Virus record (IMG/VR): IMGVR_UViG_3300002026_000174
Span: 1 to 54,214 of that record
Reading direction: 5' to 3' (one strand)
Length of the DNA stretch: 54,214 nucleotides
Source of the DNA: a virus
Taxonomy: Duplodnaviria; Caudoviricetes
Part shown: in pieces, positions 15,622 to 52,794 of the stretch
How positions within the stretch are numbered: the stretch's first letter is position 1
How the letters are laid out: each line of letters starts with the position of its first letter
Program-made: the position numbers and the translations under genes
The notes under the pieces: generated by a model
Told to the model about the DNA's origin: nothing
The model's database searches: none
Seen by the model: the letters and a program-made list of their open reading frames with translations, nothing else

Positions 15622-16287
15622 CTAACTTAAACGAGATAAGACGTCGGATTTCTTTAAATTTCTTTTATAAGGTATTCGCTCAAGCGTTATACCCTTTTCT
15701 TTAAAGAATTCTTCCTTGATCTTATCATACTCTTGCACTGTGCCATTATTCCACTGTTGCCAGATATGTTTAGGGTTTTTATGTTGAGATCCGTCAGCTT
15801 CAATTACCAGATTCTTTTCTGGTATGTAAAAGTCAACTCTCAGCGGATAACCCGTTGTCCCTACCAGTCCATCAAATTTCTTTTCAGTTTCTATGTGAGA
15901 AAATTCCTGTTGAAGAAACTCTCCCACCTTTTCCTGAAATTTTGATTTTGGTTTGACAAATCCCAAATCACGGTTTAGTTCACTTACCTTCAAACCGTGT
16001 TTGGTAAACATCTTAGAACTATGTCCAATGCCAGTGCAAATCTCCTCCATTGCACAGTACTCATTCTTTTCCCGAATAAAGTCAGTGACTTTATTCTTCA
16101 AGATTTCTCCACCAACATCTTTAGCTATACAGCCTTGATTTTTTTTATCTGGAGATTTTGAAGCACAGGATCTAGAACAGTGGGATGTTTTCAAAGTAAC
16201 AGCATACCCGTCTTTAGGTAAATACCTCGTGCTGAATACTTTCCCACAGGTTGTGCAATTTTTTTCGTGCTCGTTTAAGTTAGACAT
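15622..16287 (-). CDS. Intron-encoded endonuclease 2 (zinc finger plus Vsr/DUF559-like PD-(D/E)xK domain)
   Basis: CTTC...HCSRSC finger and LRVDFYIPEKNLVIEADGSQH nuclease motif; AGGAG RBS before ATG 16287; AT-rich; lies between the two P4 strands of the intron. Confidence 0.8.
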   Translation of the reverse strand: MSNLNEHEKNCTTCGKVFSTRYLPKDGYAVTLKTSHCSRSCASKSPDKKNQGCIAKDVGGEILKNKVTDFIREKNEYCAMEEICTGIGHSSKMFTKHGLKVSELNRDLGFVKPKSKFQEKVGEFLQQEFSHIETEKKFDGLVGTTGYPLRVDFYIPEKNLVIEADGSQHKNPKHIWQQWNNGTVQEYDKIKEEFFKEKGITLERIPYKRNLKKSDVLSRLS

Positions 16288-16403
16288 CTGCCTGCTCCTA
16301 TGAATGTTTTTCATAGAATTTGCAGGTAGGATGTCCCCGCCAATTAAGGAAAATTTCATTGACTGTTTCTAGTCAATGAGACCGTCTGTCCATTTAAATT
16401 GCA

Positions 16404-17393
16404 TTAACTTGAATAGTAGCTATATCTGTGCCCGTCTGAAAATGTCGTTCTGTCGTTAGACTTAAGACGATAGTTCAGAGCCGTTGGTGAAATACCAAGA
16501 GCCTTTGCACATTCGTTTGCTGATTTAAAAACCCTTACTTCGCCAGTTTGACTGTTTGTAACGTTCACAGACCTTTCCCCTGTGTGTTTTTGCAGTTCCA
16601 AATATGGGTCAACAACCATACGCCATTCAGCGGGGTCATCGGTCCACTTAAGCTGGACAAATCCTGGCAGTACTGCTTGATCTGTTTTTTGTAACCAACC
16701 AGTTACGGTCGACGCAGAGACTTGTAAGTGATCGGCCAACTGACCCATCGTCTTGAACTCAAGTATTTCGTTCGTTAACACGTTCCTGGCTAAAACAGAC
16801 TTAGCTTTGCCGCCTTGTAAGGATCTAATCTTTACCTTTTCTACAGAGCACCATGGTTCGTCACTATGCGAGGGTCTGTATTGTTTACCCTCTGGAAAAA
16901 CCTTGTACTCACCTGCCTTTACCCGCCAGTTTATAAAGTCCTTAGAAACTCCAAACTCTCTGGCACATTCAACAATGCTCGGGTACTTTACAACAATTCC
17001 AGTGTTCACGTCTCTAACAGAAATAGGCATACATTTAGTTGTCAGTCCTAAACTACCCGCATGATGGGCATTGCCTTGATACGTTGTCCATTCCAGATTG
17101 TCTAATCGATCATCGCCTTTTATAGCGTTGAGATGGTTTACCACCATTTTACCAACATTAGGACCTGGGTGTTTGAACACATAACCTAGAAGTCGATGGC
17201 GACCCCATGTCAAAGTGACACCCTCGTCGTCGGTTAACCTAATGTTGACATATCCGTCTGGATTTCTGCTTCCTGTTAAAAACTCTCCACGCTTTTTGTT
17301 AAACACGTCTCCTTTTACCGTGATAGCGTAAGTACTGTAACCTGGTATGTCGTACAGACAAGGAAATTGCGTTTCTACGTTGCTACTATTCAT
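16404..17393 (-). CDS. Intron-encoded HNH homing endonuclease with NUMOD-type DNA-binding repeats
   Basis: HRL...VVNHLNAIKGDDRLDNLEWTTYQGNAHH HNH core; three helix-turn-helix repeats (YPSIVECAREFGVS, FKTMGQLADHLQVS, FKSANECAKALGIS); AGGAG RBS. Confidence 0.9.
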   Translation of the reverse strand: MNSSNVETQFPCLYDIPGYSTYAITVKGDVFNKKRGEFLTGSRNPDGYVNIRLTDDEGVTLTWGRHRLLGYVFKHPGPNVGKMVVNHLNAIKGDDRLDNLEWTTYQGNAHHAGSLGLTTKCMPISVRDVNTGIVVKYPSIVECAREFGVSKDFINWRVKAGEYKVFPEGKQYRPSHSDEPWCSVEKVKIRSLQGGKAKSVLARNVLTNEILEFKTMGQLADHLQVSASTVTGWLQKTDQAVLPGFVQLKWTDDPAEWRMVVDPYLELQKHTGERSVNVTNSQTGEVRVFKSANECAKALGISPTALNYRLKSNDRTTFSDGHRYSYYSS

Positions 17394-17458
17394 CTCAACT
17401 CCTACATGTATTCAAACAATAGGAGGGTTATCTTTAATGCTATTCAAATGACAGGTTA

Positions 17459-18429
17459 ATCATCGTGATCTACGCCAGGTACAAGTAAAGCTGAAGTGGA
17501 GAGTAACTTCGCTGGGTTAGTCTCGTAGTCTGTATTCGCTGTATCGATCATACCGCGCACGTTCTTAAAGCGAGCGTATGGAGTCAGAAAGGTGTTGATA
17601 CCCACGTCTGAGCTGTCTACCGTCGACTCTGAGGTTACCCCCATATCACTGGGTGTAAATTCCCGCAGTCGCCCTGAGATGGCTTCCTTGTTCAAGCCGT
17701 CTTGTCCGACCAAGGTCACGGACTCCATCTCTTTCAGATCGTTGATGGGGTTGATATCCTCGGTGAGCTTCTTGGAATTGTCCATGACGATGTTGTTCCA
17801 CACCGCGTAGGGTGAGAGCTCGATCTTATTGCTGCGGTTGGTCTTGAACTTATAGTTACGAATGCTCTCTGAGAGAGCTCGGTACATCAGGCCAGGGATG
17901 CGCTCATAGCCCCTGATACGGGTATAGTTAGAGTCATTGACATCAGGGTGATGCATGTCTGTGAGGAGCTGGTTAGCCCTTAGGAGCAGAGCGATGTATT
18001 CGGTTGGCTCTTGCATCTCTTGTAAAACATCCATCGTGATGGGGTCCAGGAAGATGTCTCGGAGCATGTCAAGCTCTTTGAGGTAGAGCATGTTGAAATC
18101 ACGCTCTTCTAAGAGGAGCAAGTAAATGTTCTTCTTGTTGAACTCCGAGAGGGTGTACTCTTTGGTGAAGTCCTTGAAGTAGAGGAAACCAGCCAAAAGC
18201 AGGGAAGCTTCCTTGTTGGCTTTAGAGAAGATGAGCTTGTAGTCGCTGAACTTGAGTTGGTATTCGTCCTTGGCCAGCTTGTACTGCTTGTTCGATGGGA
18301 TGATCGTGGGATTAGCCCGGGTGATCTTGATGAGGTTGGACAACCCTAAGTAATACCCAAAGGCCACACCTAAGGGCATATCTTTACCAAGCACCTTGAT
18401 GTTGGTGAACGAGGTGGGTAGTTCACTTT
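17459..18429 (-). CDS. RNA polymerase beta subunit, middle segment (end of exon 1, downstream of frame break)
   Basis: Frame open from SELPTSFTNIKVLGKD; RIRGYER, INPINDLKE, SESTVDSSDVG motifs; ends GVDHDD at the 5' splice site. Confidence 0.85.
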
Positions 18430-20523
18430 ACCGTAGAGGTAGAAGGTATCGCTCTTGTCAACCACGATCGGTGTGTTGCTCTTATCAAAGCCACAGAACA
18501 CAAAGCCTTCTGGATGCTGCGTGATCTCTGCGTTGAGTTCAGGGGTAATCAGCTTGAGTGTTTCAACCTGACTGAAGACAAAGGTATATTCACCGGTTAA
18601 GGTTTGGACCTTCACACGACTAAAGACCATCGACATCGCAGCATAGATGTTAGGTAGATGTTCTTTGTTTTGAAACGTGTTGCCCAGTGAGAGGGAAAGG
18701 ATCTTAACCACATGTTCGGTATCTTCGATGTAGCTTTTGCGGATATAGTCCGTGAGGTAGGTATAGTAGTCGTAGGCTTTCTTCTCACTACGGGTGATGA
18801 AGAGCTTACTGTAGTTGCTGGTGAGCGCGACGCGGTTAGGTGCGATCTTGACAATAGGAAGGCTTGTTTTGACCTTTCTCAGTTTTACCTTAACCCCAGA
18901 GGCCAAGAATTCACCTTCGTCATTGACCTTGGGTAACTTGAAGTAGATCGTCGACTCTTTACCCAAGAGAGGTTTCAGGACCAAACGGTGAATCTCGTAA
19001 TTACCTAACTTAGACTTCTCTTCCTCGATCTCGTAGCTTTTGATCACCACACCAGCTTTCTCGATATTAGAGACACAAGCGAGCACATCTTTCTTAAGGA
19101 CGGAGTCAATGTACTTGTTGTCCATCACCTTCAAGATGTCTTGCTGCATGTCGGCGCGTACGAGGTCGTTGTGGACGTCGATCGTGCGATCGTGTAGGGT
19201 GACCTCCCGGTCGCTCTGGGAGACGATCCTGGCCTCATTAAAGAGCTTGGTGGGGTCGTAGGGAGACTTGAGGGTCTTACGAGACTCGATGAGCTTTTTA
19301 ACGGCTCTGAGCTCAGAGGAATTGACGGCCTTCACATCTAAGAGAGAGCCTAAGTAATCACTGAACTGATCATCCAGTGGTTTTTCTTGGATCAAGTCAA
19401 TGATCTCGGTATCGGTGGCGGTGAAGCTGATCTCTTCTTGCTCGGGGGTGGGTTCTGACACCACAGGAACAGGAGCATCGGCATCGAGTTCGTCCTTGGC
19501 AAAGAGCGTGTCCATGTCGGTGTCGCTGTATTCCTTCTCCAGCTCATCGATGTCGATGTCTTGCTCAGAGGAGGTATCTTCAGCTTCTACAAAGTCATGG
19601 TCAGGCGTGACACCTTTAGCGACAGGGGTATCGACTTGTGCAGCTTCTAAGAGCTTATCGACACGGCTTTGGATGATCAAGAGGAAGATCACATACATCT
19701 TCTGCACTTTATCGACAGGCTTCTTGAGCTTACTCTGCAGCCCAGAGGCGTCAGACAGAGAGGCCAGGATCGACAGAGGTAAGTAGACCACGTGGTCCTT
19801 GTACTCGATGGCCAGCACGACGTTGGCGCTGTCCTCGTCGGTCAAGTCTTTGTACACGGACTGATTGCGTGTCTTAGGATCGAGCCACAAGAACAGATGG
19901 ATCACGTTCAAAAGCGCATCTTCTTGGACCAAGCGCATCATCTTCTGCGGCGGGAACTCGGAGATCCGCTTGATCACGTTGTAGCCGTAGAGCATCGTGG
20001 GGATATAAAACGGCACGAAGTTAACCACGCTAGGATGGGTCGTGACGATCTCTTTGACGCTTTTGAGATACGTGGCGTGCAGGTTGGTGTACGCGTAGTA
20101 TTTGCTCAACGGTGAGCTCGTGTAACGGTAAGCGTCTTTCACGGCGTTGTAGTTGATCACACTCACCGTGGTGTCATCTAAGACCGGGGTCTGGGTGATC
20201 TCGCTGGGGCGAAAGACTGAGAGGTTAGCGCGGTACCATTGACGAATCGTGTTGGCAATGAGCTTGTCTTTGAGGATGGGGTTGCCCTCTTTGACAGCCA
20301 GATCGGTGACGGTCTGTACACGGATCTTCTTGGAGCTTGGCGTGTCTTTGAAGTAGTAGAGATCCTTGGTGGGAAAGCGCACGTGTTCGTTAGGGTCGAT
20401 GTAGTGCACCAGCGCCTGCTTAGGCAGGATCACGTCTTCCTTGCGGTTGATCTTGGGGTTCAGGAGGTTGATGTAGTTCCTCACCGCATAGCGCAGAAGG
20501 AAACTGGGTTTGGCTAAAAGCAT
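18370..20523 (-). CDS. RNA polymerase beta subunit, N-terminal segment (phiKZ gp178-like); out of frame with the next segment
   Basis: GVVIKSYEIE..., LPIVKIAPNRVALTSNYSKLFITRS motifs of phiKZ-type virion RNAP beta; GGAG RBS; last ~17 aa appear out of frame. Confidence 0.8.
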   Translation of the reverse strand: MLLAKPSFLLRYAVRNYINLLNPKINRKEDVILPKQALVHYIDPNEHVRFPTKDLYYFKDTPSSKKIRVQTVTDLAVKEGNPILKDKLIANTIRQWYRANLSVFRPSEITQTPVLDDTTVSVINYNAVKDAYRYTSSPLSKYYAYTNLHATYLKSVKEIVTTHPSVVNFVPFYIPTMLYGYNVIKRISEFPPQKMMRLVQEDALLNVIHLFLWLDPKTRNQSVYKDLTDEDSANVVLAIEYKDHVVYLPLSILASLSDASGLQSKLKKPVDKVQKMYVIFLLIIQSRVDKLLEAAQVDTPVAKGVTPDHDFVEAEDTSSEQDIDIDELEKEYSDTDMDTLFAKDELDADAPVPVVSEPTPEQEEISFTATDTEIIDLIQEKPLDDQFSDYLGSLLDVKAVNSSELRAVKKLIESRKTLKSPYDPTKLFNEARIVSQSDREVTLHDRTIDVHNDLVRADMQQDILKVMDNKYIDSVLKKDVLACVSNIEKAGVVIKSYEIEEEKSKLGNYEIHRLVLKPLLGKESTIYFKLPKVNDEGEFLASGVKVKLRKVKTSLPIVKIAPNRVALTSNYSKLFITRSEKKAYDYYTYLTDYIRKSYIEDTEHVVKILSLSLGNTFQNKEHLPNIYAAMSMVFSRVKVQTLTGEYTFVFSQVETLKLITPELNAEITQHPEGFVFCGFDKSNTPIVVDKSDTFYLYGKVNYPPRSPTSRCLVKICP

Positions 20524-20625: not shown

Positions 20626-21705
20626 TCAGACGTAGTAGCAAAAGCCGTAAAACAGACGCAGCTCTTCGTTGGTAGAGATGTCCTCGGTCGTGAGGGCATT
20701 CTCGATATGGAAGTCTTGCATCAGGAAACCAAAGTTGCTGCTGGTGCTGTAACCGTCATCGGCGTACAGACGGTAAGTCACCGCATCGTAGTCTTCCTTG
20801 AGCGGGTCTAAGCGCACCCCGAGGTAGAGGATAGAAGGCACCGCTTCGTCTACAGGGATGTAGATGTTGAAGTAGTTATGGGTGGTGGCATTGACCACAC
20901 CCGAGGTATCACGAATAGCCGGGATGATACCCGCTGGATTGTAGAGCTCCCAGTATACCGGGGTGTTGGCTGGCAGCTGTGAGTTATCGATATAGATCGT
21001 GAACATGCTCCCCTTAGTGTAGCGGCACTCCAGAGACTTCACCGAGATCGGAGAGGTCAGTTTGTGCTGTGTCACGAAGTACAAGAAGTGGTCGTAGTTC
21101 AGGATCTTGTTGACGGGGAAGACTTTACCGAGCTTAGAGCACTCGATGTCACCGATCAAGTTGTTGACGATGTTCAAGACCACATCGGTCTGACCCATCG
21201 TCACGGCGCGCTTGATACGCTCCAGACCGTCGACCACTGGCTCAAAGCCAAAGACGTCATCCAAGAGGTGGCGATGGATGCTCGGTGGGTACTCGGTGGG
21301 CTTATTGAATATGTTCTCCCATCCTATAGGACGGGTGTCGTTAATCACGGCCTCATAGACGTTGGCAATGGTGTTGTTGCTGTAGGCGAAGTGTCCACCC
21401 AAAGCTTGGTAGGTGATCGTCACGTGTGAGCTCACGCTGGCACGCGTGATGAGGATCACTGATGAGATCTCTTGGCCATAGAGCAGGGTGGCTTCTTGGT
21501 GGAGTTCGACGACTTGGTAGTCCATACCCCGCACTAAAACCGTCACACCGTCTTTGACTTGAAGCGTCTCTGAAAAGAAGGGACCCAAGTTAGGCGAGAT
21601 GCTTCGGTAAGTCGCACCGCTTAAGGTGTGAGGCTCATCGATGATGCGGTTGTTGACATTCGTGCCCGTGATGTCCAAGTCGAGTTTAGGGATATTGTAG
21701 CTCAT
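20626..21705 (-). CDS. Virion structural protein (paralog of the N-terminus of 6673-7650)
   Basis: LDITGTNVNNRIIDEPH, GPFF, ITYQALGG, WENIFNKPTEYPPSIHRH motifs match the 6673-7650 product. Confidence 0.75.
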   Translation of the reverse strand: MSYNIPKLDLDITGTNVNNRIIDEPHTLSGATYRSISPNLGPFFSETLQVKDGVTVLVRGMDYQVVELHQEATLLYGQEISSVILITRASVSSHVTITYQALGGHFAYSNNTIANVYEAVINDTRPIGWENIFNKPTEYPPSIHRHLLDDVFGFEPVVDGLERIKRAVTMGQTDVVLNIVNNLIGDIECSKLGKVFPVNKILNYDHFLYFVTQHKLTSPISVKSLECRYTKGSMFTIYIDNSQLPANTPVYWELYNPAGIIPAIRDTSGVVNATTHNYFNIYIPVDEAVPSILYLGVRLDPLKEDYDAVTYRLYADDGYSTSSNFGFLMQDFHIENALTTEDISTNEELRLFYGFCYYV

Positions 21706-32770: not shown

Positions 32771-34876
32771 ATGCAAGACATCGTCAACGCGGCTCCCATG
32801 GTCATTGATCTTGGCACTCAAGATCTCTCGACTCGGGTCGTTCCCCAGAACTCGCTGAGCATCCCTCAGCATCTGCCCAAGCTCTACATCTTCGCAGAGA
32901 AAGGCCCCATCGGTCCCGCGTACGTTGATTTCGCCAGCGTGTCTCTGACACAGCTCTATGGCGATGAGACCTTCAACCTGCTCAACAAGTACTTCACTCA
33001 CCAGACCGTTTTTGCTTCCGCCATCGCTGGCGCCGGTAACAACTGCGTCATCCAACGCGTCGTCCCTGATGACGCTCAAGATGCTGCCAACGTGACCTTG
33101 TACCTGGACGTGCTTCCCACCCAAGTGCCTCTGTACCAAAAGAACACCGATGGCTCTGTGGTTGTAGATGCCAACAACCTGCCTATCCCTCAAAAAGACG
33201 GCACCGGTGCCGTCATCAACATCCCTGGCTTCAAAGTCAAGTGGGTCGCTGATCACAGTGAAGCCGCAGTCGGTGCTTACACGCCTGGCCTGAAAACGGT
33301 TCGCCCTGGCACTCAGATCGATACCACCACTTCCGTGCAGTCCACTCAGACCCCGGTCTTTGAGTTCTTCGCCAAATACGCCGGTGAATACGGCAACAAA
33401 CTCGCTATTCGCATGTTCCCAGCTTTGCAGTCGGATATGACCCCATTCCCCGACTACATCCTGACCGACATGAAGAACTTCCCCTACTACTTCCAGTTGG
33501 TCAAGCTCATCAATGCCGACACTGGCAAAGTCCAAGCCCTCACCAATTCCGCCCTGATTACTTCGACGAAGTTCATCCTGGACAACAACGTCCTGGATAT
33601 CAACACCGAAGAGCGCATCGGCCTGGAAACTGCGGTCAACACTGGCAAGGCCGAATACGCTATCCCCGAGGAGACCCGTCAACTCGGTGGTCTGTATGTC
33701 TACAAAAGCAACCTGAGCACCGCTTTGCAGCAGCTCTATGATGCCGAAAAGATCATCTCTGACAGCCACAAAGATGCGGTCATCAACAACACCGATAACA
33801 ACCTCTTCGCGCTGAACCTGATCAACTTCGTGAGCTCCAATGGCTCGCCTTACCAGTCGATCAAACTCATCGATGACGTGGACTCCATTCGCCTGACCAA
33901 GAACACCAACGTGTACTTGAAAGGTGCCTCGGACGGCACGATCAGCTTGGGTGCTTTGGACGCTTTGGTGGCACAGGACCTGGAGCTCTACAACAGCGCG
34001 ATTTCTGAATACAACGACTTGGTGATGCATCCGGAATCCATCATCTATGACTCCGGTTTCACGCTGGCTACGAAAAAGGCTTTTGCCAAGTTCATCTCTC
34101 GCCGTAAAGACACCTTTGTGGTGCTCTCGACCATGGCGCACGATAATCCCTCAGTGGATCTGAACTCGCAGTACTCCGTAGGCGTGGCGCTGAAGACGAT
34201 GTTGGAACTCTACCCTGAGTCCTCGGCTTTTGGTACGCCAGTTACTCGCGGCATGATTTCGATCGGCAGTGGTAAATTGGTTACCTCGAACTACGACCAG
34301 CGCGTCCCGCTGACCTATGAAGTCGCATATATGGCCGCTCGGTACATGGGTGCGTCTAACGGTGCTTGGAAGAATGGTTTTGCGTTTGACCACGCGCCTA
34401 ATTCCATCGTGACCCAACTCAAAGACATCGATATCACTTGGGTACCAGCGAGCACCCGCAATAACTTGTGGACGGTTGGGTTGAACTTCGTGCTCAACTA
34501 CAAACCACGCACGCAGTTCTTCCCCGCAATGAAGACAGTCTACTCTGGTGGTGACACATCTGTACTCAACAGCTTCTTTACGGCAGTGGCCATCAGTTTT
34601 GTCACGAAGATCATCCATGCCAGCTGGCGTGAGTATACCGGCGCAATAAGCTTCACAAATGCCCAACTGGAAGAAGCTGTCAACGGCTTCATTGCTGAAA
34701 AAGTGAAGGACAAATTTGACGGAAAATTTGTGATTATCCCTAACGTAACCGTCACGGAACGCGACAATCTCAATGGTTTCAGTTGGACTACGGAGGTGAA
34801 ATTTTTTAGTAATAACATGCGCACAGTTTGTACGGCATTCGTCAGTGCCCGTCGTATGAGCGATCTGGCTCAGTGA
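32771..34876 (+). CDS. Tail sheath protein (phiKZ gp29-like)
   Basis: 701 aa; IVNAAP, PQHLP, YDSGF motifs; AGGAG RBS; strong codon bias; upstream of the tube gene. Confidence 0.85.
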   Translation: MQDIVNAAPMVIDLGTQDLSTRVVPQNSLSIPQHLPKLYIFAEKGPIGPAYVDFASVSLTQLYGDETFNLLNKYFTHQTVFASAIAGAGNNCVIQRVVPDDAQDAANVTLYLDVLPTQVPLYQKNTDGSVVVDANNLPIPQKDGTGAVINIPGFKVKWVADHSEAAVGAYTPGLKTVRPGTQIDTTTSVQSTQTPVFEFFAKYAGEYGNKLAIRMFPALQSDMTPFPDYILTDMKNFPYYFQLVKLINADTGKVQALTNSALITSTKFILDNNVLDINTEERIGLETAVNTGKAEYAIPEETRQLGGLYVYKSNLSTALQQLYDAEKIISDSHKDAVINNTDNNLFALNLINFVSSNGSPYQSIKLIDDVDSIRLTKNTNVYLKGASDGTISLGALDALVAQDLELYNSAISEYNDLVMHPESIIYDSGFTLATKKAFAKFISRRKDTFVVLSTMAHDNPSVDLNSQYSVGVALKTMLELYPESSAFGTPVTRGMISIGSGKLVTSNYDQRVPLTYEVAYMAARYMGASNGAWKNGFAFDHAPNSIVTQLKDIDITWVPASTRNNLWTVGLNFVLNYKPRTQFFPAMKTVYSGGDTSVLNSFFTAVAISFVTKIIHASWREYTGAISFTNAQLEEAVNGFIAEKVKDKFDGKFVIIPNVTVTERDNLNGFSWTTEVKFFSNNMRTVCTAFVSARRMSDLAQ

Positions 34877-34968: not shown

Positions 34969-35028
34969 ATGAGTCGATTGTCAGATGCTTTAGTCTCTGG
35001 GGCATACGCTCGGGATCGTTTATTTTAA
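34969..35028 (+). pseudogene. Orphaned copy of the tail-tube gene 5' end (19 aa)
   Basis: TTAGGAGT RBS then MSRLSDALVSGAYARDRLF*, matching the tube N-terminus MSRLSDALLTGAY. Confidence 0.85.
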
Positions 35029-36336
35029 ACCTGTTGAAAACATTTTATTTAACTTGTCCATTAGAAAAGATTCTATTTTGTTGTTATCAAGAACAACATA
35101 TGGAACAGTGATGAGTTTACCATTAAACAATTCAACTAATCTTTTTTTACAATAATCAGATACTTTTTGTTCTTTGAACCCATCCAAATCTCTGTGAAAG
35201 AACTCCACATATCTGTAGTGTTGCATGCCATGAAACTCAATGAAGACGTTGTGGTCAGGTAAGTAAAAGTCATATCTGAATTTGTTATTTGGTAGTTTGT
35301 GCTCCCGAACATAGTTAACGCCATGTTTGTCCAAAATTTCAGCTATCTTTAATTCCCCTTTAGAATCACTGCATTTTCTACACCCGCATTTGTCGTTAAC
35401 GTGCACAGACGGAGTTTGTTCAAACGGGCCGTGTATAGGGCAGATTATTGTTACTTTATCAAGGTAACCAAAATACTCAACCTTGCTGTAGTCGTATCTG
35501 TCGCCATGCACCTCTCTAGCTTTAGCGATGAACTCCTCTGTGGTCGTTCTTCTGTTTTCAAAATTACAATCAGGACAAATACTGGTAATGTGCACGGCCG
35601 GGGTTTGTTGAAACTCGCCGTGTATAGGGCAGATTATTGTTACTTTAGTGGTATTATTTATGTATACCGTTTTACTATAATCATACTTGTCGCCATGCTT
35701 TTCGCGGGCTTTAGCTATGAACTGATCTAAGCCTAACGACCTATCGTTTACCCCACATAGGTAACATTTTTTACCTTCTAAATGCGTGGTTGGTTTTTGT
35801 TGAAACGGGCCGTGCGCCGGGCAGATTATAGATACAGGCACTCTTGATGTGACGTAGTTAACTTGGCTGTAGTCGTATCTGTCGCCATGTACCTTTCTAG
35901 CTTTAGCGATGAACTCCTCTGCGTTTGATCTTATTTTTACAGAGCGACAAGCAGGGCAGTTAAACCCTCTGAGGAAATGAAAGGGGAGATATTGAAATTC
36001 CCCGTGCTCTTTACAAATAACGGTTATTTTAGAATCTCGCGAGGTGTAGTTAACTTGGCTGTAGTCGTATCTGTCGCCATGCACCTTTCTAGCTTTAGCG
36101 ATGAACTCCTCTGTGGTCAGTCTAACACACATAGGTGAGCATAGTGGACAATCACTGTCTATATGTATAGATGGTTTCTGCTGGAACTCCCCGTGAATCG
36201 GACACAATATCGTGACAGGAGTTTGCATGTCTTTGTAACACATTTTGCTATAGTCGTACTTGTCCCCGTGTTTAGCCTTGGCTTTAAGAATGAATTTCTT
36301 AGCATTTAATGCTATTGTTACTTTCATATTTTTCAT
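35020..36336 (-). CDS. Free-standing putative homing endonuclease (five zinc-ribbon repeats plus Vsr/DUF559-like nuclease)
   Basis: Five FIAKARxxHGDxYDYS...IICPxHGxFxQxPxxH...CxxC repeats; C-terminal FRYDFYLPDHNVFIEFHGMQHY; AT-rich; antisense to the structural operon. Confidence 0.85.
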   Translation of the reverse strand: MKNMKVTIALNAKKFILKAKAKHGDKYDYSKMCYKDMQTPVTILCPIHGEFQQKPSIHIDSDCPLCSPMCVRLTTEEFIAKARKVHGDRYDYSQVNYTSRDSKITVICKEHGEFQYLPFHFLRGFNCPACRSVKIRSNAEEFIAKARKVHGDRYDYSQVNYVTSRVPVSIICPAHGPFQQKPTTHLEGKKCYLCGVNDRSLGLDQFIAKAREKHGDKYDYSKTVYINNTTKVTIICPIHGEFQQTPAVHITSICPDCNFENRRTTTEEFIAKAREVHGDRYDYSKVEYFGYLDKVTIICPIHGPFEQTPSVHVNDKCGCRKCSDSKGELKIAEILDKHGVNYVREHKLPNNKFRYDFYLPDHNVFIEFHGMQHYRYVEFFHRDLDGFKEQKVSDYCKKRLVELFNGKLITVPYVVLDNNKIESFLMDKLNKMFSTGLK

Positions 36337-37356: not shown

Positions 37357-38112
37357 ATGTCGATTGTCAAGTTCACAGGCACCGTGCTGCCTAACATCAA
37401 TAAAAAGGGTGTTCTCACCCCCGATAGCAATGGCTACTACACGTTCATCGTGGGCGGTCTGAACTGCTTTAACTCCGCTGGTGAGTACTATACCGCCAAG
37501 GGGGCGTCTCAGCTCTTTGAGGGCTCCAGTCACCTGATGCGTCGTATCTCTAACGGTGCGCTCTTTGGTGAGTTGGGGCATCCTAAGAAGGACCCTGCGA
37601 TGAGCATGGAAGACTTCTATAAGCGTGTGTTTACGCTGGATGAGCAAAACATCTGCTGCCATTTCAGTGAGATCTGGTTGGACTTTGCCTATGGTAAGAA
37701 CACCCCCTCTGCAAACAATCCCGATCTGGTGGCGATCATGGCCAAGGTCAAACCCTCTGGTGTGCATGCGAAAGCCTTGGAAGACTCCATCACCAACCCA
37801 CAGGAGAACGTGGCTTTCTCCATTCGCGGGATCACGGATAACAAGTACAGGAATGGTCGGGTGGAGCGTACACTCACGCAGATCATCACCTGGGACCGTG
37901 TGATAGAGCCTGGCATCAAGATGGCCAACAAGTGGGCTAGTCCTGTGCTGGAAGAGCTCTCGGACGTCTCGATCAATACCGAGAAGCTGCTCCAAGTAGC
38001 CGCCGAGAGCCAGTGCTCTTTGCTGGCTACTGAGAACAGTCGCGCTATTTATAGCGAGGTGATTGAGAAATACACGGTCTCTCCTAAGCGCTCTTCTTTG
38101 CTGGAGTGGTAG
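37357..38112 (+). CDS. Prohead (head maturation) serine protease, phiKZ gp175-like
   Basis: GELGHP (His), AFSIRG (Ser), ITWD..EPG motifs of T4 gp21-like prohead proteases. Confidence 0.85.
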   Translation: MSIVKFTGTVLPNINKKGVLTPDSNGYYTFIVGGLNCFNSAGEYYTAKGASQLFEGSSHLMRRISNGALFGELGHPKKDPAMSMEDFYKRVFTLDEQNICCHFSEIWLDFAYGKNTPSANNPDLVAIMAKVKPSGVHAKALEDSITNPQENVAFSIRGITDNKYRNGRVERTLTQIITWDRVIEPGIKMANKWASPVLEELSDVSINTEKLLQVAAESQCSLLATENSRAIYSEVIEKYTVSPKRSSLLEW

Positions 38113-38441
38113 AGGTGGCGCCGGATTACAAGTATGCGGCCAAGGTAGACCGCGTGGTCGACGGTGACACGGTAGATGCCGTGATGGATTTGGGGTTTCA
38201 TGTGGCGATTAAAATCCGCTGCAGGTTAGCCCGGGTCAACGCTGTGGAATTGTATGCCCCAGGAGGGAAAGACGCTAAACTGACCGTACAAATGCTTTTA
38301 CCGGTGGGTAAAGATGTCTTCATCCACAGCACGAGTTTAGATAAATACGGGCGCAGTATCGCTGAGATTTACGTGGATAACGAGAATCTGACCGACATTC
38401 TGCGCGGAGACTATCCGACGCTTTTTAAGCCTTATGTCTAG
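38106..38441 (+). CDS. Thermonuclease (SNase-like)
   Basis: RVVDGDT, RLARVNAVE, DKYGRSIA motifs; start codon uncertain. Confidence 0.8.
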   Translation: MVEVAPDYKYAAKVDRVVDGDTVDAVMDLGFHVAIKIRCRLARVNAVELYAPGGKDAKLTVQMLLPVGKDVFIHSTSLDKYGRSIAEIYVDNENLTDILRGDYPTLFKPYV

Positions 38442-38570: not shown

Positions 38571-40715
38571 ATGATCCTCTTTGAGAGCGACTACGACTTA
38601 TACCCTACTTGCACGGTGCACGTAGAGACCCAAAACGAGAGCTTTAAACGCTTGGCATCCCTGTACAAGAAGATGGGGGTGAAGAACCACGCGTTTCCTT
38701 TAGCGTTGATCCAGCCAGAATTGGCGAAGGTCAACCCTCATGACCTGGAGAGCCTCACGATGGACACCATGGCGAAAATCGTCTATGAGTGTAAGCACAA
38801 CTTTTGGTACTATATCCGAGAGATAGTGCGTGTGCCACCACTGGCAGGCGTGGAGACCGATCCCTTTAATGCCAATAGAGCTAACATCGCGCTGTACTGG
38901 AGCTTCTTTAACCACATCACAACCATCCTCATTCAACCTCGTCAGACCGGTAAATCCTTCAGCACCGACGTCTTGATGATCTACTTGCTCAACATCGGGG
39001 TGACCAACACGCTGATCAACATGCTCACACGCTCAGATGACTTGCGTACACAGAACTTGATACGTCTGAAAAAGATCCAAGAAGAGGTGCCCTTTTACTT
39101 GAACTTCAAGAGCCGAGGTGACATCTTCAACACCGAGGAGATCAACATCAAGTCCTTGGGTAACATGTACAAGGGTAACTTGTCTAACCTCTCACCTAAG
39201 TTAGCCAACAGTGTGGGTCGAGGCTTCACGTCGCCGATTTTGCATGTCGATGAGGCGTGTTTCGTGCCTAACGTGGAAATAGCTCTGTCTGCAGCTCTGA
39301 TGGCCGGTAATGCCGCGCGTGATGCGGCTAGGCGTAACGACATGCCCTATGGCACGATTCTTACGACCACCACGGGCAAGATCGATGACCGTGATGCCAA
39401 GTACGTCTACAAGCTCTGGAACGCAGCCACGGTCTGGGATGAGCTCTTCTTAGACGCGAGAGACGAGGAAGAACTCAACGCTTTGGTGCTGTCTAATTCT
39501 AAAGCGGGTATGAACGAGACCAAACGTGCTATTTTGAACCTCACCTTCAGTCACCGGCAGCTGGGATACACAGATGAGTGGATGAGAAGCAAACTGCAAG
39601 AGACCATCGCCGAAGGTGAAGATGCAGATAGAGACCTCTTTAACCGCTGGACCAGTGGCACACAGACATCTCCTATTCCTAAAGAGTACATCGAGGTGAT
39701 GCGTGACTCGGTGTCTGAGACGTTCAGAACCGAGATCTACAGGCCTTACAACTATATCCTGCGGTGGTACATTACCGAGGAAGATATCGACTACCGTGTA
39801 GCCAACGGCGTGAGCTTTGTGATGGGGGTAGATACCTCTGACGCGGTGGGCCGAGACGATATCGCTTTGGTGATCCGAGACCACACGAGCGCTGCCGTGA
39901 TCTGTACGGCCACCTTCAATGAGCTCAACTTGATTACCTTGGCGGACTTCTTCGTGGACTTCATGATGAAGTATCTTAACTCCGTGATGGTCATTGAGCG
40001 TCGCAGCTCAGCTGTAGCCATCATCGACTACATGATCATGAAGTTCATCGCCTTGGGTGTGAACCCCATGAAGCGACTCTTTAACATGATCGTGCAATAC
40101 TCTCAAGAGAAAAACAAAGAGTACACAGAACTCCAACAGGTTAAGTATTACAACCAAGACTACTTCATCCAACAGAAGAAACATATCGGCTTTACCACTT
40201 CAGGCTCTGGCGTGACTTCTCGCTCTGAGCTCTATAGCACCACATTGATCAGCATGTGTAAGTACACCGGTAACTGCATGCACGATAAGCAGCTGCTGTC
40301 ACAGATCCTGGGTTTAGTGATCCGTAACAACCGCGTCGATCACCCTGAAGGCGGTAACGATGACATGGTGATTGCGGGGCTGTTAAGCTACTGGTTCTTG
40401 GTCAGTGGTAAAGGCTTGGACTACTACGGCATCGACCGAGGTCTGCTCTTTACCCGTAACAGGAACTACCTCGAAGAGAAGTACGAGGGCAGCTCCTTAG
40501 AGCAAGAGGAGATACTGATTAAAGAAGAGAAGATCAAAGATCTCTTAGAGCAGTACAAGAAAGAGGCTAACCAGTTCATCTTAAAGCAGCTAGAGTATAA
40601 GCTGCACGCACTGAGCAATGAGATCAACACCAGCCATAATCGCGCTATTTCCATAGAGCAACTCTTAGAAGATATCCGTCGCACCAAGAAGACCAATCGG
40701 TACGGTGTACGGTAA
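38571..40715 (+). CDS. terL: Terminase large subunit
   Basis: Walker A PRQTGKS, Walker B LHVDE, TTT coupling motif, nuclease GVDTS and DDMVIA; GGAG RBS. Confidence 0.92.
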   Translation: MILFESDYDLYPTCTVHVETQNESFKRLASLYKKMGVKNHAFPLALIQPELAKVNPHDLESLTMDTMAKIVYECKHNFWYYIREIVRVPPLAGVETDPFNANRANIALYWSFFNHITTILIQPRQTGKSFSTDVLMIYLLNIGVTNTLINMLTRSDDLRTQNLIRLKKIQEEVPFYLNFKSRGDIFNTEEINIKSLGNMYKGNLSNLSPKLANSVGRGFTSPILHVDEACFVPNVEIALSAALMAGNAARDAARRNDMPYGTILTTTTGKIDDRDAKYVYKLWNAATVWDELFLDARDEEELNALVLSNSKAGMNETKRAILNLTFSHRQLGYTDEWMRSKLQETIAEGEDADRDLFNRWTSGTQTSPIPKEYIEVMRDSVSETFRTEIYRPYNYILRWYITEEDIDYRVANGVSFVMGVDTSDAVGRDDIALVIRDHTSAAVICTATFNELNLITLADFFVDFMMKYLNSVMVIERRSSAVAIIDYMIMKFIALGVNPMKRLFNMIVQYSQEKNKEYTELQQVKYYNQDYFIQQKKHIGFTTSGSGVTSRSELYSTTLISMCKYTGNCMHDKQLLSQILGLVIRNNRVDHPEGGNDDMVIAGLLSYWFLVSGKGLDYYGIDRGLLFTRNRNYLEEKYEGSSLEQEEILIKEEKIKDLLEQYKKEANQFILKQLEYKLHALSNEINTSHNRAISIEQLLEDIRRTKKTNRYGVR

Positions 40716-41352: not shown

Positions 41353-42434
41353 ATGAACGATGAAAAATTTAACTGGGTACCTGTTGTTTCCTCGTCTGGT
41401 AAGCCACTCATGCCATGCCATCCGGCTAGGGCTAGAGATCTTATCCGTAAAGGAAAAGCGGTACCTAAGTGGAAAAAACAGCTATACTACATTCAACTTG
41501 TAGATAGGGTTGATGGTGATTTACAACCAGTTGCCTGTGGAATCGACCCGGGTAGTAAACGCGAAGGTTATACAGTTAAATCAGCTACTAAAACGTATCT
41601 GAACATTAATTCGCATGCCTGTGGTTACGTTAAAGACAAGGTTAGCTTTAAGCGCGTTATGAGAAAACTCAGACGTAGTCGGCACACCCCGTGTCGTGCT
41701 AAGAGAAGCAACAGATCAAGATCACTAAACTTCATACCGCCATCAACTCGAGCCAGATGGGGGTTAAAATTAAGAATAAGTGCATGGCTTTCTAAGTTCT
41801 ACCCTATATCGGCGTTTGTAGTGGAGGATATTATTTACGAGACAATTGAGGGTAAAAATATCCGCAGCAACAGTAGTTTCTCCCCGCTTCAAGTCGGTAA
41901 AAAATGGTTCTACGAACAACTAAGCAAATTAGCAAATGTGTTTACTAAGGTCGGTAGGGATACATATAACCTCCGACGGGACCACGGGTTAATCAAAACT
42001 AGATTAAAAATGGCTGAAGATTTCTCAGCACATTGCGTCGACTCGTGGGTATTGGCCAATTGGCATACCGGTGGACACCTAAAGCCGGATAATCAAACCC
42101 TCATGATACTAAAGCCAATAGACTACCGGAGAAGACAACTTCACGTTGCTACGCCCGTAAAAGGTGGGTGTAGACGGAGGTATGGCGGAACTATGTCCTC
42201 TCTATGGTGGGTGGGTATACCGAGGACAGAGTTACACTCACAGACACAGTATACGGAAAAAGAAAAACACAACAGGCTAAACTCAGCGATTGTTTGATTC
42301 TAGCACCATCCCCGTGGCTTTATCACCCCGTCAGACATTCTAAATCCATAGACAAAAAGATACGCAATGTAAGTATTTTGAGAGCTAAAAAGGGTAGAGT
42401 TGTGGTTGCCAGCGAAACCACGACGTCCCTCTAA
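41353..42434 (+). pseudogene. isrB: IsrB-like RNA-guided nickase (PLMP + split RuvC, no HNH), C-terminus frameshifted as sequenced
   Basis: KPLMPCHPARAR, GIDPGSK, Arg-rich bridge helix, VVEDI, SAHCVDSW; homology to locus 2 continues in ORF 42204-42434 (VGG..., SPWLY) after a missing segment. Confidence 0.8.
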
Positions 42435-45124: not shown

Positions 45125-46285
45125 TCAGGGTGGGGAGGAGGAGAGCAGGTGGACCTGCCCTCGGCGCAGCAGTGAGTGTTGACGGCGCATGGCTTTTTTC
45201 TGGGTGCGGTGAGCGGCGGCGTGGTCATAGAGACTCCAGGGTGAGTGAGAGACGAGGGTGAGGTCGGTAGGTTTAGCGTTTTGGCATAAGCGGGAGTTAC
45301 TGACGGGGGCGTTTAGACTGAGCCTACCTTGGCCGTCATGACCACCAACCAGACACTGACCGTATTTAGGGTGTATGGCCAGTGTACCCTTTTGGATACC
45401 CAGCGAGAGGCTACCCCCGTAGCGGCGACGCTCACCGCCCTGAGAGGGGTTAAAGAGGGTGAGCTGGCGCCGGATCACGGGAAGCTGCTTCAGGACCAGC
45501 AGAGCTTCGAGGTCAGGGGTGGTATGGCCACCGACCCAGGCGTTAGCTAAGGTCCAGCTGTCCACGCAGTGGGCACTGAAGATGGTGGCGAGTTTGCTCT
45601 TGGTCTTGGGTAGCCCCATGGCTTGGCGCATCTCGTAGGTCTGGTGGCCTTCGACTTTGACCAGCTCGACGCCGTAGGCTTGCAGACGCCGATAGAGCCA
45701 GTGCTTACCAGCCTCGATGGGACTGAAGTTGTTGTTCCAGCGTTTGGCGCCGGCGTGCTGACCTTTGACAGTCTTGGCTTTGACATCCTCGATGACGACG
45801 CACTCGACGGGGTAGAGGTTGGCCAGCCAGGCGAAGATGTTGTACTTGAGCTGCCAGCGGGCGTGGGTGGAAGGCGGTAGCCAGTCCTGCTTACGAGCAC
45901 GATTCGGTCGGCAGGCCCGACACGGGGTCTTGCGCTGACGACGAGCACCCCGAGCGTTAGCGCGTGTCTCCACAGCTTTGCTGATACCTTTACCGTCAGC
46001 GGCGTGGGACTGGATGTTCAGCAGCGTGCGCTTCTCGGATTTCAGGGTGTAGCCTTCCATCTTAGAGCCGGGGTCGATGCCGAGGGCGATGGGTTGGGTA
46101 TCTCCGTCTTCGCGCTCGGTGAGGACGATGTAGAAGAGGCGGCTCTTATAGTGAGGTGTGGCTTTACCTTTAGCGATGAGTTTGCGGGCACGTGCGGGGT
46201 GGCACGGCATGAGGGGTTTACCCGTCTTAGAGACGACGGGGACCCAGCGCTGCTGATGCGGGTCTGAGGAGATGGGTGTGGTCAT
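45125..46285 (-). CDS. isrB: IsrB RNA-guided nickase (intact, ~386 aa)
   Basis: KPLMPCHPARAR (PLMP), GIDPGSK (RuvC-I), Arg-rich helix, VIEDV (RuvC-II), SAHCVDSW (RuvC-III), no HNH; ATG 46285 preferred because the listed start lies in the omega-RNA. Confidence 0.88.
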   Translation of the reverse strand: MTTPISSDPHQQRWVPVVSKTGKPLMPCHPARARKLIAKGKATPHYKSRLFYIVLTEREDGDTQPIALGIDPGSKMEGYTLKSEKRTLLNIQSHAADGKGISKAVETRANARGARRQRKTPCRACRPNRARKQDWLPPSTHARWQLKYNIFAWLANLYPVECVVIEDVKAKTVKGQHAGAKRWNNNFSPIEAGKHWLYRRLQAYGVELVKVEGHQTYEMRQAMGLPKTKSKLATIFSAHCVDSWTLANAWVGGHTTPDLEALLVLKQLPVIRRQLTLFNPSQGGERRRYGGSLSLGIQKGTLAIHPKYGQCLVGGHDGQGRLSLNAPVSNSRLCQNAKPTDLTLVSHSPWSLYDHAAAHRTQKKAMRRQHSLLRRGQVHLLSSSPP

Positions 46286-46533
46286 GGTGATTTCTGCCTT
46301 ACGGCGCTTCGGGTGAACGAGTGAGGGCCCCTTCGACACTGACAGCTTCAGAGGTTACGGGCTAGGGGAGTACCTGTAACGTGATGTGGCCTGCCACGGC
46401 CTTAGCTGTTCAGTATTGCGCCCGCGGTAGGTAAGGGTCTACAGCGCGGGTGTCTAGTACAACCGTTTAGTCTCGAGTTAGGCCCTTGGCAGGGCTGCTC
46501 TCAAGCCCCGGCTTTTAAGCCGGGGTGGTTGAC
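46286..46533 (-). ncRNA. omega-RNA scaffold of IsrB locus 2
   Basis: About 250-nt structured non-coding leader starting GTCAAC; stems ACTGAACAG/CTGTCAGT, GTTAC/GTAAC and CCCCT/AGGGG. Confidence 0.85.
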
Positions 46534-50367: not shown

Positions 50368-50901
50368 ATGCAACTCAAATCCGACAAACGCCCACCCTCA
50401 GAACTGCGGGCTATCTCTCGCGAAGTCAACAAGATGGTTGACCAAGCTTTCACCGTAGCTCCCGAGGATTCCGAGACCCTCGAGAAGATTTTGGTCACTT
50501 GGGACGACTTGGTTTCATTGAAAAATGAGCTGGCCTCCCAAGTTCTGAACCTGGTGCACAACGTCACCTCTATCTCCTCGAACCCTCAGATCACGAGCAA
50601 CCTCGCTCACCCTGAGAACTTCTCCAAGCTCGTGCAAGTCTTCTTCCAAGACGTCAACGAGTACAGCAGCAAAGTCAAGGTTTTGCGTGACAAACACGAG
50701 CACCATACCGGCAAGATCCTCTCCATCGCTGAGTTTGAAGAATACAACAAGCTGGCTGTAGAGTACTACGGTTTGTCTGAAGAACTCATCCATGTGCTTG
50801 CCCCCACCGTGACTGAGTTGGTCTTGATGTCCAACGCTGACGTCACTGCCAAGATCCAAGAACTCCAACAACTGGAAGCCGTCAATGTCCAACCCATCTG
50901 A
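50368..50901 (+). CDS. Hypothetical helical protein
   Basis: AAGG RBS before ATG 50368; overlaps the next gene. Confidence 0.7.
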   Translation: MQLKSDKRPPSELRAISREVNKMVDQAFTVAPEDSETLEKILVTWDDLVSLKNELASQVLNLVHNVTSISSNPQITSNLAHPENFSKLVQVFFQDVNEYSSKVKVLRDKHEHHTGKILSIAEFEEYNKLAVEYYGLSEELIHVLAPTVTELVLMSNADVTAKIQELQQLEAVNVQPI

Positions 50902-52375
50902 TACCCCCCAGGATACCCCTGTAGAACCCGTAGAAGCCCCTGCAAGCCCCGCAATCGTTCAAGACGACCCAGTGGTGCCTACTGCTCGTTACGCGCACCA
51001 GACGAGCGATTACAGCGCTCCTGGCACGTCTGAGAAAATAAACTACGCCTTCAGCCTTCCCTCCATCGTGTTTCCAGAGTTCACGAAGAAGATGGCAGAC
51101 TTCAACAACCTGAACGAAGACAAGGTGTCTCTGAAAGCTTGGAAAGATGTCGTGCAAGACTCGGTGGACCATTACACGTCTGCCGACATGTACACTGAGC
51201 GTCTGGCGGACCCCGCTGCTCGTTTTGAGCAAGGTTTTGTAGATAGCTCTAAGGCACTCTCGACCATCTCTGACTTTAAGTTGAAGAACGTCGACGGTGA
51301 GATCAAGGGTGAGTTTGCGCTGTTGAAGGTCGCTAAGTTTCTTGGCTTGGGTGACATCGTGCGTATCCCGCTGCCACATTCGGGGATGTGGATCACGGTC
51401 AAGCCTCCCACTGAGAAAGACCTGATCGACTTCTACAACAACCTCTATAAAGAAAAAGTCATCTTAGGTCGCTCTACCAGTGGCCTGACTTTGTCAAACT
51501 TCTCGGTCTACATCAACAACGCGTTGATTGACTTCATCTTGGACCACGTGCACTCCATCAGCTACTCCGACATCAAGATTTCGGATCTGAAGAAGTACAT
51601 CTCCATCCATGATCTGCCTATTCTCACCTGGGGGTTTGCCGCGAGTCTGTACCCCAATGGCTTTGACTATAAACGCGCGTGTGTCGCTGATGTGGAAAAG
51701 TGTTCGCACATTGTCTCCGGTAAGATCAACGTGGCCAAGCTCTTGTGGATCGACAATGCGGCACTGACTGATGCGCAAAAGCTCATCCTCTCAGAGTTTC
51801 GTCCTAACCGTCTCACAATGGACAGCTACACGAAATACAAGACCGAGCATACCCGCTGTGTCAGTGGCTCCTTTAAGACGGATTCGGGTCTGAAGTTCAC
51901 TTTGACGGTGCCTAGCATCGATGAGTACGTGAGCACGGGTCTGGCTTGGGTGAACGCGATCAACAATCAAGTGGAATCCGTTGCACTGGACAACAAGGAT
52001 CCTAAGTACAAACAGTCCATTTTAGAGCAGTACATCAAGACCACGCTCTTGAAACAGTACTGCCACTTTGTCACTGAGATCGAGATCGATGAGAACACCG
52101 TCACCGACCGTGAGACCATCAACAGCGTCTTAGAGATGCTCTCCTCCGATGACGCGACACGCACCCAGGTGTTGACCGAGATCAATAAGTACATCAGCCA
52201 GACCACGGTGGCCGTAATCGGGATCCCTGAGTACGAATGCCCAAGCTGTAAGACCAACCAAAACACCTCACCTGTGAACGATAAGCTGGTGAACGTGATT
52301 GCCCTGGACAGCATGAACCTTTTTTTTTCCCTAATTACTCTGCGAATAACCAAGATCCTCGAGCGCGAGATGTAG
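50885..52375 (+). CDS. Probable baseplate-hub/tail assembly protein with CxxC finger
   Basis: 496 aa; YPNG...C...C and C-terminal YECPSC; ends NLFF on a T9 run. Confidence 0.65.
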   Translation: MSNPSDTPQDTPVEPVEAPASPAIVQDDPVVPTARYAHQTSDYSAPGTSEKINYAFSLPSIVFPEFTKKMADFNNLNEDKVSLKAWKDVVQDSVDHYTSADMYTERLADPAARFEQGFVDSSKALSTISDFKLKNVDGEIKGEFALLKVAKFLGLGDIVRIPLPHSGMWITVKPPTEKDLIDFYNNLYKEKVILGRSTSGLTLSNFSVYINNALIDFILDHVHSISYSDIKISDLKKYISIHDLPILTWGFAASLYPNGFDYKRACVADVEKCSHIVSGKINVAKLLWIDNAALTDAQKLILSEFRPNRLTMDSYTKYKTEHTRCVSGSFKTDSGLKFTLTVPSIDEYVSTGLAWVNAINNQVESVALDNKDPKYKQSILEQYIKTTLLKQYCHFVTEIEIDENTVTDRETINSVLEMLSSDDATRTQVLTEINKYISQTTVAVIGIPEYECPSCKTNQNTSPVNDKLVNVIALDSMNLFFSLITLRITKILEREM

Positions 52376-52794
52376 GCTATATTGCAGGGGCAGGCTTTGG
52401 ATTAGAGAAAGACTTTGAGACTTTTCTGAAGGACTCTCTCTTCTCCATTCGTAATGTGCCTAACTACATCTACGGCAAGCAGCTCATCATCGAGCTCTAC
52501 GAGACGTTTTTTGGCATCCATAACCACGCCGGCGAGACCAACCCTTTTGCCAGCGTAGCCTATAACCCATCTGAGGAATACCTCAAGGACGGGCTCTATG
52601 AGAATTACGTCTCTATCTATGTGCATAAAGAGATCTACAAGAAGCTAGGGCTGTCGTTTACAGAGTTCATCGACCAGCCTCGCTACAAGATCAATTCCAT
52701 GCTCGCCGTCATCGACGAGTACGATAAGAAGCGCATGAAGACCAACCAAGACTTACTCTCTGATCTGGAAAGTAAGAACACCCCAGGAGCTTAA
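52327..52794 (+). CDS. -1 frame ORF, probably a frameshift extension of 50885-52375 (listed ORF 52456-52794)
   Basis: Frame has no stop from 52285 to 52791; no clear RBS before GTG 52456; LGLSFTEFIDQP segment resembles tail-chaperone extension domains. Confidence 0.65.
   Translation, partial: FPNYSANNQDPRARDVGYIAGAGFGLEKDFETFLKDSLFSIRNVPNYIYGKQLIIELYETFFGIHNHAGETNPFASVAYNPSEEYLKDGLYENYVSIYVHKEIYKKLGLSFTEFIDQPRYKINSMLAVIDEYDKKRMKTNQDLLSDLESKNTPGA

Follow-up and report, generated by a model that had tools for sequence, protein, structure and literature searches.

A probable programmed −1 ribosomal frameshift at a conserved T-rich heptamer in a gene shared by phiKZ-like jumbo phages

Does a gene that meets a run of nine T residues shortly before its stop codon make one protein or two? 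The question is raised by a stretch of viral DNA of 54,214 nucleotides (nt) (IMG/VR record IMGVR_UViG_3300002026_000174; this whole stretch is called the window below). The window is a jumbo-phage fragment with split multisubunit RNA polymerase genes and genes for a tail sheath, a head protease, a large terminase and a DNA polymerase. Near its right end, an orthologue of the phiKZ gene PHIKZ077 is followed in the −1 frame by coding sequence that appears to have no start of its own. We conclude from sequence comparison that the site is probably a programmed −1 ribosomal frameshift. Its elements are as follows.

50885-52375, + strand: zero-frame gene of 496 amino acids (aa), orthologue of phiKZ PHIKZ077, taken from the listing of open reading frames (ORFs) and their translation.
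52320-52328, + strand: T9 run in the codon context AAC CTT TTT TTT TCC, close to the 3′ end of the gene.
52321-52327, + strand: slippery heptamer T TTT TTT in the phase of the zero frame, with the P-site TTT at 52322-52324 and the A-site TTT at 52325-52327.
52327-52794, + strand: −1 frame extension of 155 codons plus TAA, an all-helical domain in its predicted model, orthologue of PHIKZ076.4.
52373-52375, + strand: zero-frame stop codon TAG, which terminates the short isoform.
52456-52458, + strand: GTG, the earliest ATG, GTG or TTG of the −1 frame, heading a 112-aa ORF (52456-52794).

The initial annotation of this locus had already proposed a −1 slip here, and the anatomy it described was confirmed. 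The T9 run lies where it had been placed, near the end of gene 50885-52375, and is the longest homopolymer of the window (the runner-up is a T8 at 16139). The −1 frame has no stops from 52285 until the TAA at 52792-52794 and thus runs, as claimed, into the 52456-52794 ORF. A slip at 52321-52327 is predicted to fuse 481 residues from the zero frame with 155 codons of the −1 frame, so that the product of about 636 aa, suggested alongside the 496-aa form, was recovered on recomputation. One statement was wrong, namely that Phe is mostly written TTC elsewhere in the gene: TTT is used 13 times vs 7 for TTC (11 vs 7 outside the run), although the TTC preference is strikingly true of GC-rich relatives.

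In the reading that we favour, most ribosomes would translate through the T run as far as TAG 52373-52375 and make the 496-aa protein, with its short terminal helix. Others would slip back by one base while tRNA-Phe occupies both the P and the A site on T TTT TTT, resume at TTC 52327, read 155 codons and terminate at the TAA 52792-52794. In the resulting 636-aa protein, the terminal helix would be swapped for a helical domain of ~155 aa, while the 481 N-terminal residues would be common to both forms. Both would act in assembly of the baseplate or tail hub.

To compare this site with its relatives, orthologous loci were gathered at the protein level. Against phage nucleotide sequences, megablast of the region gave no match and blastn a single match of 174 nt, in Bacillus phage AgentSmith. 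The upstream protein belongs to phrog_4585 (E 6e-97), the match extending to profile position 545/551, and the −1 frame matches phrog_12109 from about 52369, i.e. upstream of GTG 52456. With the upstream protein as query, tblastn found 257 phage records, all of phiKZ-like jumbo phages, the phiKZ copy being PHIKZ077; 17 of them, picked for diversity, were examined. A protein search gave 168 upstream homologues. Alignment A1 had no conserved stretch and was unusable for a locus scan, so the closer alignment of these homologues (A2) was used instead and led to 22 metagenome contigs at 45-58% identity, 21 of which reach the 3′ end of the gene. Scanning viral contigs with the single protein gave one distant locus (L002), which was left out. 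The final set thus comprised 39 loci (the window, 17 phage genomes and 21 metagenome contigs), with 22-58% identity to the window protein as taken from alignments A1 and A2 and one tblastn.

The same layout recurred throughout this set. In AgentSmith, the closest phage examined, the upstream gene reads G GTT TTT TTA C, the −1 frame opens just ahead of the slip site and its homology to the window −1 frame (41% identity, tblastn) begins directly past the T run, 260 nt ahead of the annotated start of the downstream gene. In phiKZ, the sequence AC T TTT TTT ACT is followed by a 218-nt ‘gap’ ahead of PHIKZ076.4. SURPRISE13, RP31, Special G, Goslar, SPN3US, CR5, PCH45, SPLA10, JM-2012 and Eowyn are organized alike. 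All 21 metagenome contigs have a zero-frame stop 45-50 nt past a T run and a −1 frame open from the run or earlier, for about 155-187 aa except in L027, which is truncated by its contig end; 17 of these 21 carry an in-phase T TTT TTN. The arrangement is ancestral to phiKZ-like jumbo phages, its phiKZ version being gp77 plus gp76.4. As had been anticipated, standard annotation misses the pair: a joined coding sequence (CDS) is present in 0/17 of the public phage records examined.

We then considered whether the −1 frame is coding without a start. It is open at the T run in 39/39 loci, over 153-218 aa except in the truncated L027 and in phage RVTF4, and the +1 frame at these loci is short (3-110 aa). 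In RVTF4 (L016, 2646-3235), the −1 frame breaks after 82 aa at a stop (2892-2894), and the annotated downstream gene starts from 2915. Phage D6 (L017) has a near-identical site with an intact −1 frame of 178 aa; a second frame change, or else a sequencing error, accounts for the break in RVTF4. Comparison of the 21 codons that follow the zero-frame stop in 16 close relatives distinguished the three frames:

−1 frame: stop-free in 16/16 loci, mean pairwise aa identity 0.355.
Zero frame, continued: stop-free in 3/16, identity 0.21.
+1 frame: stop-free in 1/16, identity 0.23.

In the −1 frame codons of that stretch, position 3 is the least conserved. The zero-frame tail past the run is itself conserved as protein, and its Arg is coded AGG, CGC, CGG, AGA or CGA in relatives; this conservation together with synonymous variation indicates that both frames are read.

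These data bear directly on the possibility that there is no recoding at all. The downstream ORF would then be a separate gene, expressed from a non-canonical or poorly recognised start or by reinitiation after the TAG, and the T run would merely encode Phe-Phe. Such an organization would agree with the free-standing annotation of PHROG 12109 proteins (profile of 147 positions), with annotated starts near the upstream stop in RP31, D6 and Noxifer, and with phage T4, where gene 26 yields a second product (CDS 26′) via internal initiation; the internal start of 26′ is an AUU codon. Phe-Phe is moreover conserved here, as it is near the C-terminus in the T4 gp26 family. Against this possibility, there is no conserved start. 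No Shine-Dalgarno sequence precedes GTG 52456, in agreement with the earlier remark that the downstream ORF has no clear ribosome-binding site: the preceding 25 nt are pyrimidine-rich with no GGAG or AGGA, whereas the following gene (ATG 52798) does have one, AGGAG at 52785-52789, eight bases upstream. Across the 39 loci, no ATG, GTG or TTG is met until 41-323 nt past the run, the first ones occupying non-homologous positions, and 12 of the 16 close relatives have none between the T run and the 21st codon past the stop. In the extension alignment (A4), one residue is invariant (F33) and two others are nearly so (I19 and G25); all three lie upstream of GTG 52456, which is probably not the real start. 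The annotated ATG of SPN3US aligns with a Leu in CR5. As to a hidden alternative start, the conserved Ile of a Tyr-Ile-Ala motif is coded ATT, ATA or ATC, or the residue is replaced, and it is thus not a conserved one. Finally, a search of 1.84 billion representative proteins with the extension profile gave 741 relatives; the best 150 of these are 59-186 aa long and begin at profile positions 1 to 99, only 4/150 at position 5 or before. Called starts scattered across about 100 profile positions are what gene callers give when no true start exists.

The second line of evidence is the heptamer. Because Phe-Phe is itself a conserved motif, the recurrence of the heptamer was compared with an expectation, namely that x-Phe-Phe be written T TTT TTN, computed for each gene from its frequency of third-position T and its TTT/TTC usage elsewhere. 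An in-phase T TTT TTN is found in 30/39 loci, and in 27 of 34 distinct loci vs 6.5 expected, a difference whose significance is overstated by the assumption of independence since the loci are related. In 200,000 simulations none reached 27, the maximum being 16. Despite this kinship, synonymous sites are long saturated at 22-58% protein identity. Individual genomes illustrate the point: TTT accounts for 0/17 of the other Phe codons in SURPRISE13, 2/18 in RP31 and 2/14 in PCH45, and all three read T TTT TTT at the site. In AgentSmith, L028 and L039, the second codon has changed from Phe to Leu, yet the heptamer is kept as T TTT TTA, so that what persists is the X XXY YYZ pattern, not the amino acid and not the length of the run. 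Taken together, these comparisons indicate that selection acts on the heptamer itself. The excess over what Phe-Phe and codon usage would give also speaks against the absence of recoding, which we consider very unlikely. The central proposal of the initial annotation is thus supported, as relatives share the heptamer and a −1 frame that is open and lacks a start.

Nine of the 39 loci do not carry the canonical heptamer:

Phages: Noxifer, G TTT TTC; PS119XW, A TTT TTC; D6 and RVTF4, A TTT TTT; pVa-21, T5.
Metagenome contigs: L019 and L020, A TTT TTT T; L023 and L037, GTT TTT TAC.

They may have a weaker shift, use single-tRNA slippage or have moved to independent initiation. In the phages without heptamer (L005, L007, L016, L017 and L018), the first possible −1 start lies 53-107 nt after the run (median 63), compared with 41-261 nt (median 127) in the 13 phage loci that have it. 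Nearer starts in the heptamer-less phages hint at a lineage-specific switch to independent initiation; the heptamer-less metagenome loci L019 and L023 break this trend.

Besides these nine loci and the kinship of the sequences, several observations weigh against a programmed ribosomal frameshift. Some relatives have a usable start close to the zero-frame stop: an ATG overlaps it in RP31 and another lies 24 nt past it in D6, and the extension may also be made separately in some lineages. A conserved stimulatory RNA structure was not found, RNAalifold giving no consensus. A candidate 7-bp stem located 10 nt downstream is 77% paired vs 45-59% for slid controls and shows two compensatory pairs; only 4/7 of its pairs form in the window, and the sequences on which it was scored are those that yielded it. 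The 50 nt downstream of the run fall in the most stable tenth of same-gene segments for 5/17 phages and are unremarkable in 12/17, the window standing at 0.77. Run lengths of T7-T9, lastly, also fit slippage of RNA polymerase.

Ribosomal and transcriptional slippage would yield the identical two proteins. In the transcriptional case, the RNA polymerase (host or phage multisubunit) would stutter on the run and some mRNAs, with one extra U, would encode the fusion directly. Bacterial polymerases slip on runs of such length, as in Thermus dnaX and Shigella mxiE: the window has T9, and most relatives have T7-T8. Also in favour of polymerase slippage are the failure to find a conserved ribosomal stimulator and the T7 run of L019 and L020, which is out of phase for a canonical heptamer; in the window, moreover, a one-U deletion would meet a TAA at once (CCC TAA), limiting the damage of the opposite slip. 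On the other hand, the data fit conservation of the pattern better than conservation of run length. The run varies between T5 and T8 among relatives, and L028 has only T6 yet forms T TTT TTA; the heptamers of AgentSmith and L039 also end in A. Furthermore, the shortest T7 runs (phiKZ, RP31, Eowyn, L024, PCH45 and SPLA10) all read exactly xxT TTT TTT, an argument of limited weight as 2/3 of the possible phases yield a canonical heptamer anyway. The T6 of L028 and the T7 phase in six genomes favour re-pairing of tRNAs, and we regard polymerase slippage as unlikely.

The immediate +1-frame stop of the window (CCC TAA, 52328-52335) has counterparts: a CCTAA or CCTAG motif after the T run is also present in Special G, Goslar, Eowyn, PCH45, AgentSmith and L028 (columns 12-19 of alignment A3). 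It could be a cap for the products of an opposite one-base slip, or a mere dual-coding constraint.

Homopolymers are error-prone, and the T9 run could in principle be a sequencing or assembly error, or the mark of a decaying pseudogene, in which case the true gene would be one 636-aa ORF, or the two ORFs would be unrelated. The length of the run was therefore compared in public sequencing runs. Contigs from three of the four runs compared (X2, X3 and X4, from two studies) span the T9 with zero indels, although one of X1-X4 is possibly the window's own sample. In run X1, contigs break on either side of the T run: one ends at 52318 and the other begins at 52333, leaving 52319-52332 uncovered. 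This gap may reflect an assembly-graph break at the homopolymer, or length heterogeneity in that sample. Among the sequencing runs listed as containing this DNA, none is recorded as RNA; a fifth one presumed to be RNA (X5) shares only 0.04 of the sampled words. The two-frame layout in 39/39 independent loci and the conservation of the zero-frame tail as protein are at odds with an error or with decay. Moreover, no fused single-ORF form was found among the best 120 of the 168 upstream homologues (465-541 aa) or the best 150 of the 741 extension matches. No longer protein (>272 aa) containing the extension was found either, which is weak evidence. An artefact or a pseudogene is hardly credible on these data.

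As to what the two proteins do, no Pfam family matches either part at E ≤ 0.01 and the matching PHROGs are of unknown function. The 496-aa protein has two Cys pairs near its C-terminus, then Phe-Phe and a terminal helix. In its AlphaFold2 (AF2) model (predicted local distance difference test score, pLDDT, 78; predicted TM score, pTM, 0.81), the last helix (476-495) begins at Phe-Phe, so that the shift would swap this helix for the extension. The extension, folded separately, is all-helical in its model, with a long terminal helix (pLDDT 72). Searches against known structures were negative: nothing in the PDB at E ≤ 1 with the A2 profile, nothing in the PDB at E ≤ 0.001 by Foldseek, and, in a wide VIA-align search, best Z values of 6.0 for the upstream part (helices only) and 5.5 for the extension, both within the common range. 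In contrast to these, Foldseek of the upstream model against BFVD returned phiKZ-like orthologues first and then entries named ‘baseplate hub assembly protein, T4-like’, ‘baseplate hub subunit’ and ‘baseplate hub assembly chaperone’. The T4-like hub matches have E values from 1.9e-4 to 1.2e-2, probabilities of 0.99-1.00 and TM scores by target of 0.43-0.57, with predicted models on both sides. For the extension, BFVD gave its own uncharacterised orthologues only.

Among sequence profiles, PF12322, whose full model is matched by each of T4 gp26 and gp51, gave weak matches (E < 0.01) in 6/50 members of the family, a single one of which exceeds the gathering score (25.6 vs 24.5 bits), and no match in the window protein. 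Searching five phage records for PF12322 gave no candidates, but neither did the control genomes, and that negative is uninformative. In ESM Atlas neighbour clusters, 14-24% of members carry PF12322, and the depositors of AgentSmith named their orthologue likewise (baseplate hub assembly). Profile-profile comparison by hhalign of A2 with a gp26 alignment (A5) was negative (probability 0.9%), that with T4 gp26 alone recovered the CPxC motif only (probability 10.6%), and a narrow custom gp26 hidden Markov model was also negative, with a best score of 8.5 bits. No solved structure of the hub assembly chaperone family was found. Judging mainly from the predicted models, homology to the T4 gp26/gp51 hub assembly chaperones is likely, the upstream protein being probably a distant relative of these chaperones. 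Both T4 proteins are listed as hub assembly chaperones by Leiman et al. (2010, PMC3004832).

T4 gp26 and gp51 (PF12322), like the window family, carry a C-terminal CxxC followed by Phe-Phe, and T4 gene 26 (L041, 3803-4429, − strand) gives two products, CDS 26 and 26′, as is proposed for the window gene. The T4 pair differs in having a common C-terminus, 26′ being an in-frame C-terminal piece made with no frameshift, and the T4 proteins are smaller (208 and 249 aa vs 496/636). The production of two isoforms, by differing means, may thus be more general in the hub chaperone family.

The initial annotation had called the site tail-chaperone-like. Phage tail chaperones are reportedly made by frameshifting in lambda (G/GT) and P2 (E/E+E′). 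As an analogy, and perhaps in function given the predicted fold, the label stands. In both systems, as is proposed for the window pair, translation shifts to −1 shortly before the 3′ end of a gene for a virion-assembly helper; the two products have a common N-terminus and the longer one an extra C-terminal domain, a feature conserved by position, not by sequence. The P2 frameshift site is a T-rich heptamer as well. The label does not hold as homology or position: neither part shares a sequence family with the lambda G/GT or P2 E/E′ proteins (no Pfam match), the window forms are far larger (496/636 aa vs roughly 140/280 aa), and the gene does not lie between those for the tail tube and the tape measure. 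Around it are DUF7484, phrog_14050, phrog_3294, phrog_5171 and a nuclease-like ORF, and the tail sheath gene (32771-34873) lies about 16 kb away.

For the slip itself, another parallel is Escherichia coli dnaX, whose tau and gamma forms arise at a −1 frameshift site. There, as is proposed here, a homopolymeric in-phase heptamer is read by bacterial translation, and isoforms with a common N-terminus are made in a fixed ratio; the shifted product of dnaX is, unlike that of the window, the shorter one. The dnaX site has an upstream Shine-Dalgarno sequence and a downstream hairpin, whereas no conserved stimulators were found here, an upstream Shine-Dalgarno-like sequence having been checked by eye only. 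The window would hold a mechanistically canonical −1 site that functionally parallels lambda G/GT and P2 E/E+E′.

The remainder of the window has features of its own. The RNA polymerase beta-type gene (phrog_3148; 14194-20523, − strand) is in three ORFs (18373-20523, 17459-18394 and 14194-15210), which cover profile positions 5-708, 740-1050 and 1083-1420, respectively. HNH/homing endonuclease ORFs (16407-17393 and 15625-16359) sit between the last two pieces, and the split suggests an intron or homing-element insertion. Four more HNH or other endonuclease ORFs lie amid core genes (35023-36336, 38106-38438, 41353-42294 and 45128-46339), one of them directly upstream of the large terminase gene (38571-40712); for a stretch of 54 kb, homing-type nucleases are unusually dense here. 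A 1834-aa ORF (7675-13176, + strand) has repeated tail-fibre PHROG matches, with phrog_16641 in 8 stretches. It is preceded by a 325-aa ORF, which has an N-terminal ‘virion structural protein’ module (phrog_2163) in common with ORF 20629-21705.

In a full-text search of the literature, which subscription journals and preprint supplements lay beyond, no earlier description of a frameshift was found, either for this gene or for phiKZ-like phages. The name ‘gp77’ designates other proteins there (the Goslar capsid decorator, the PCH45 small terminase and a PhiPA3 RNA polymerase subunit), the frameshifts mentioned in PMC11849849 are engineered mutations, and ‘gp81’ and ‘gp82’ do not appear in the main text of a Goslar virion-structure preprint.

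More tentatively, and we hold this possible rather than probable, the pair could be the missing counterpart of lambda G/GT in T4-type and jumbo myoviruses: a chaperone of the gp26/gp51 family made in two forms, with slippage into −1 on T TTT TTN setting their ratio. Such an arrangement would be shared by phiKZ-like jumbo phages, nucleus-forming and related ones, among them phiKZ (gp77-gp76.4), Goslar (gp081-gp082) and SPN3US. The helical extension would then recruit a hub, tape-measure or tube component, as does the T domain of GT.

If the frameshift is real, an unannotated isoform would be added to a gene present in 257 phage records of the collection searched, including those of the model phages phiKZ, Goslar, SPN3US and PCH45, the downstream piece being now mis-started or truncated in many of them. 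The function of this conserved protein would become easier to approach, in the direction of baseplate hub assembly. The site is also relevant to the use of host ribosomes by jumbo phages, since some of these encode ribosome-binding proteins. The rule that two chaperone isoforms are made by −1 frameshifting would be extended to a lineage and a protein family not so described, through an arrangement conserved across a large and much-studied group of phages.

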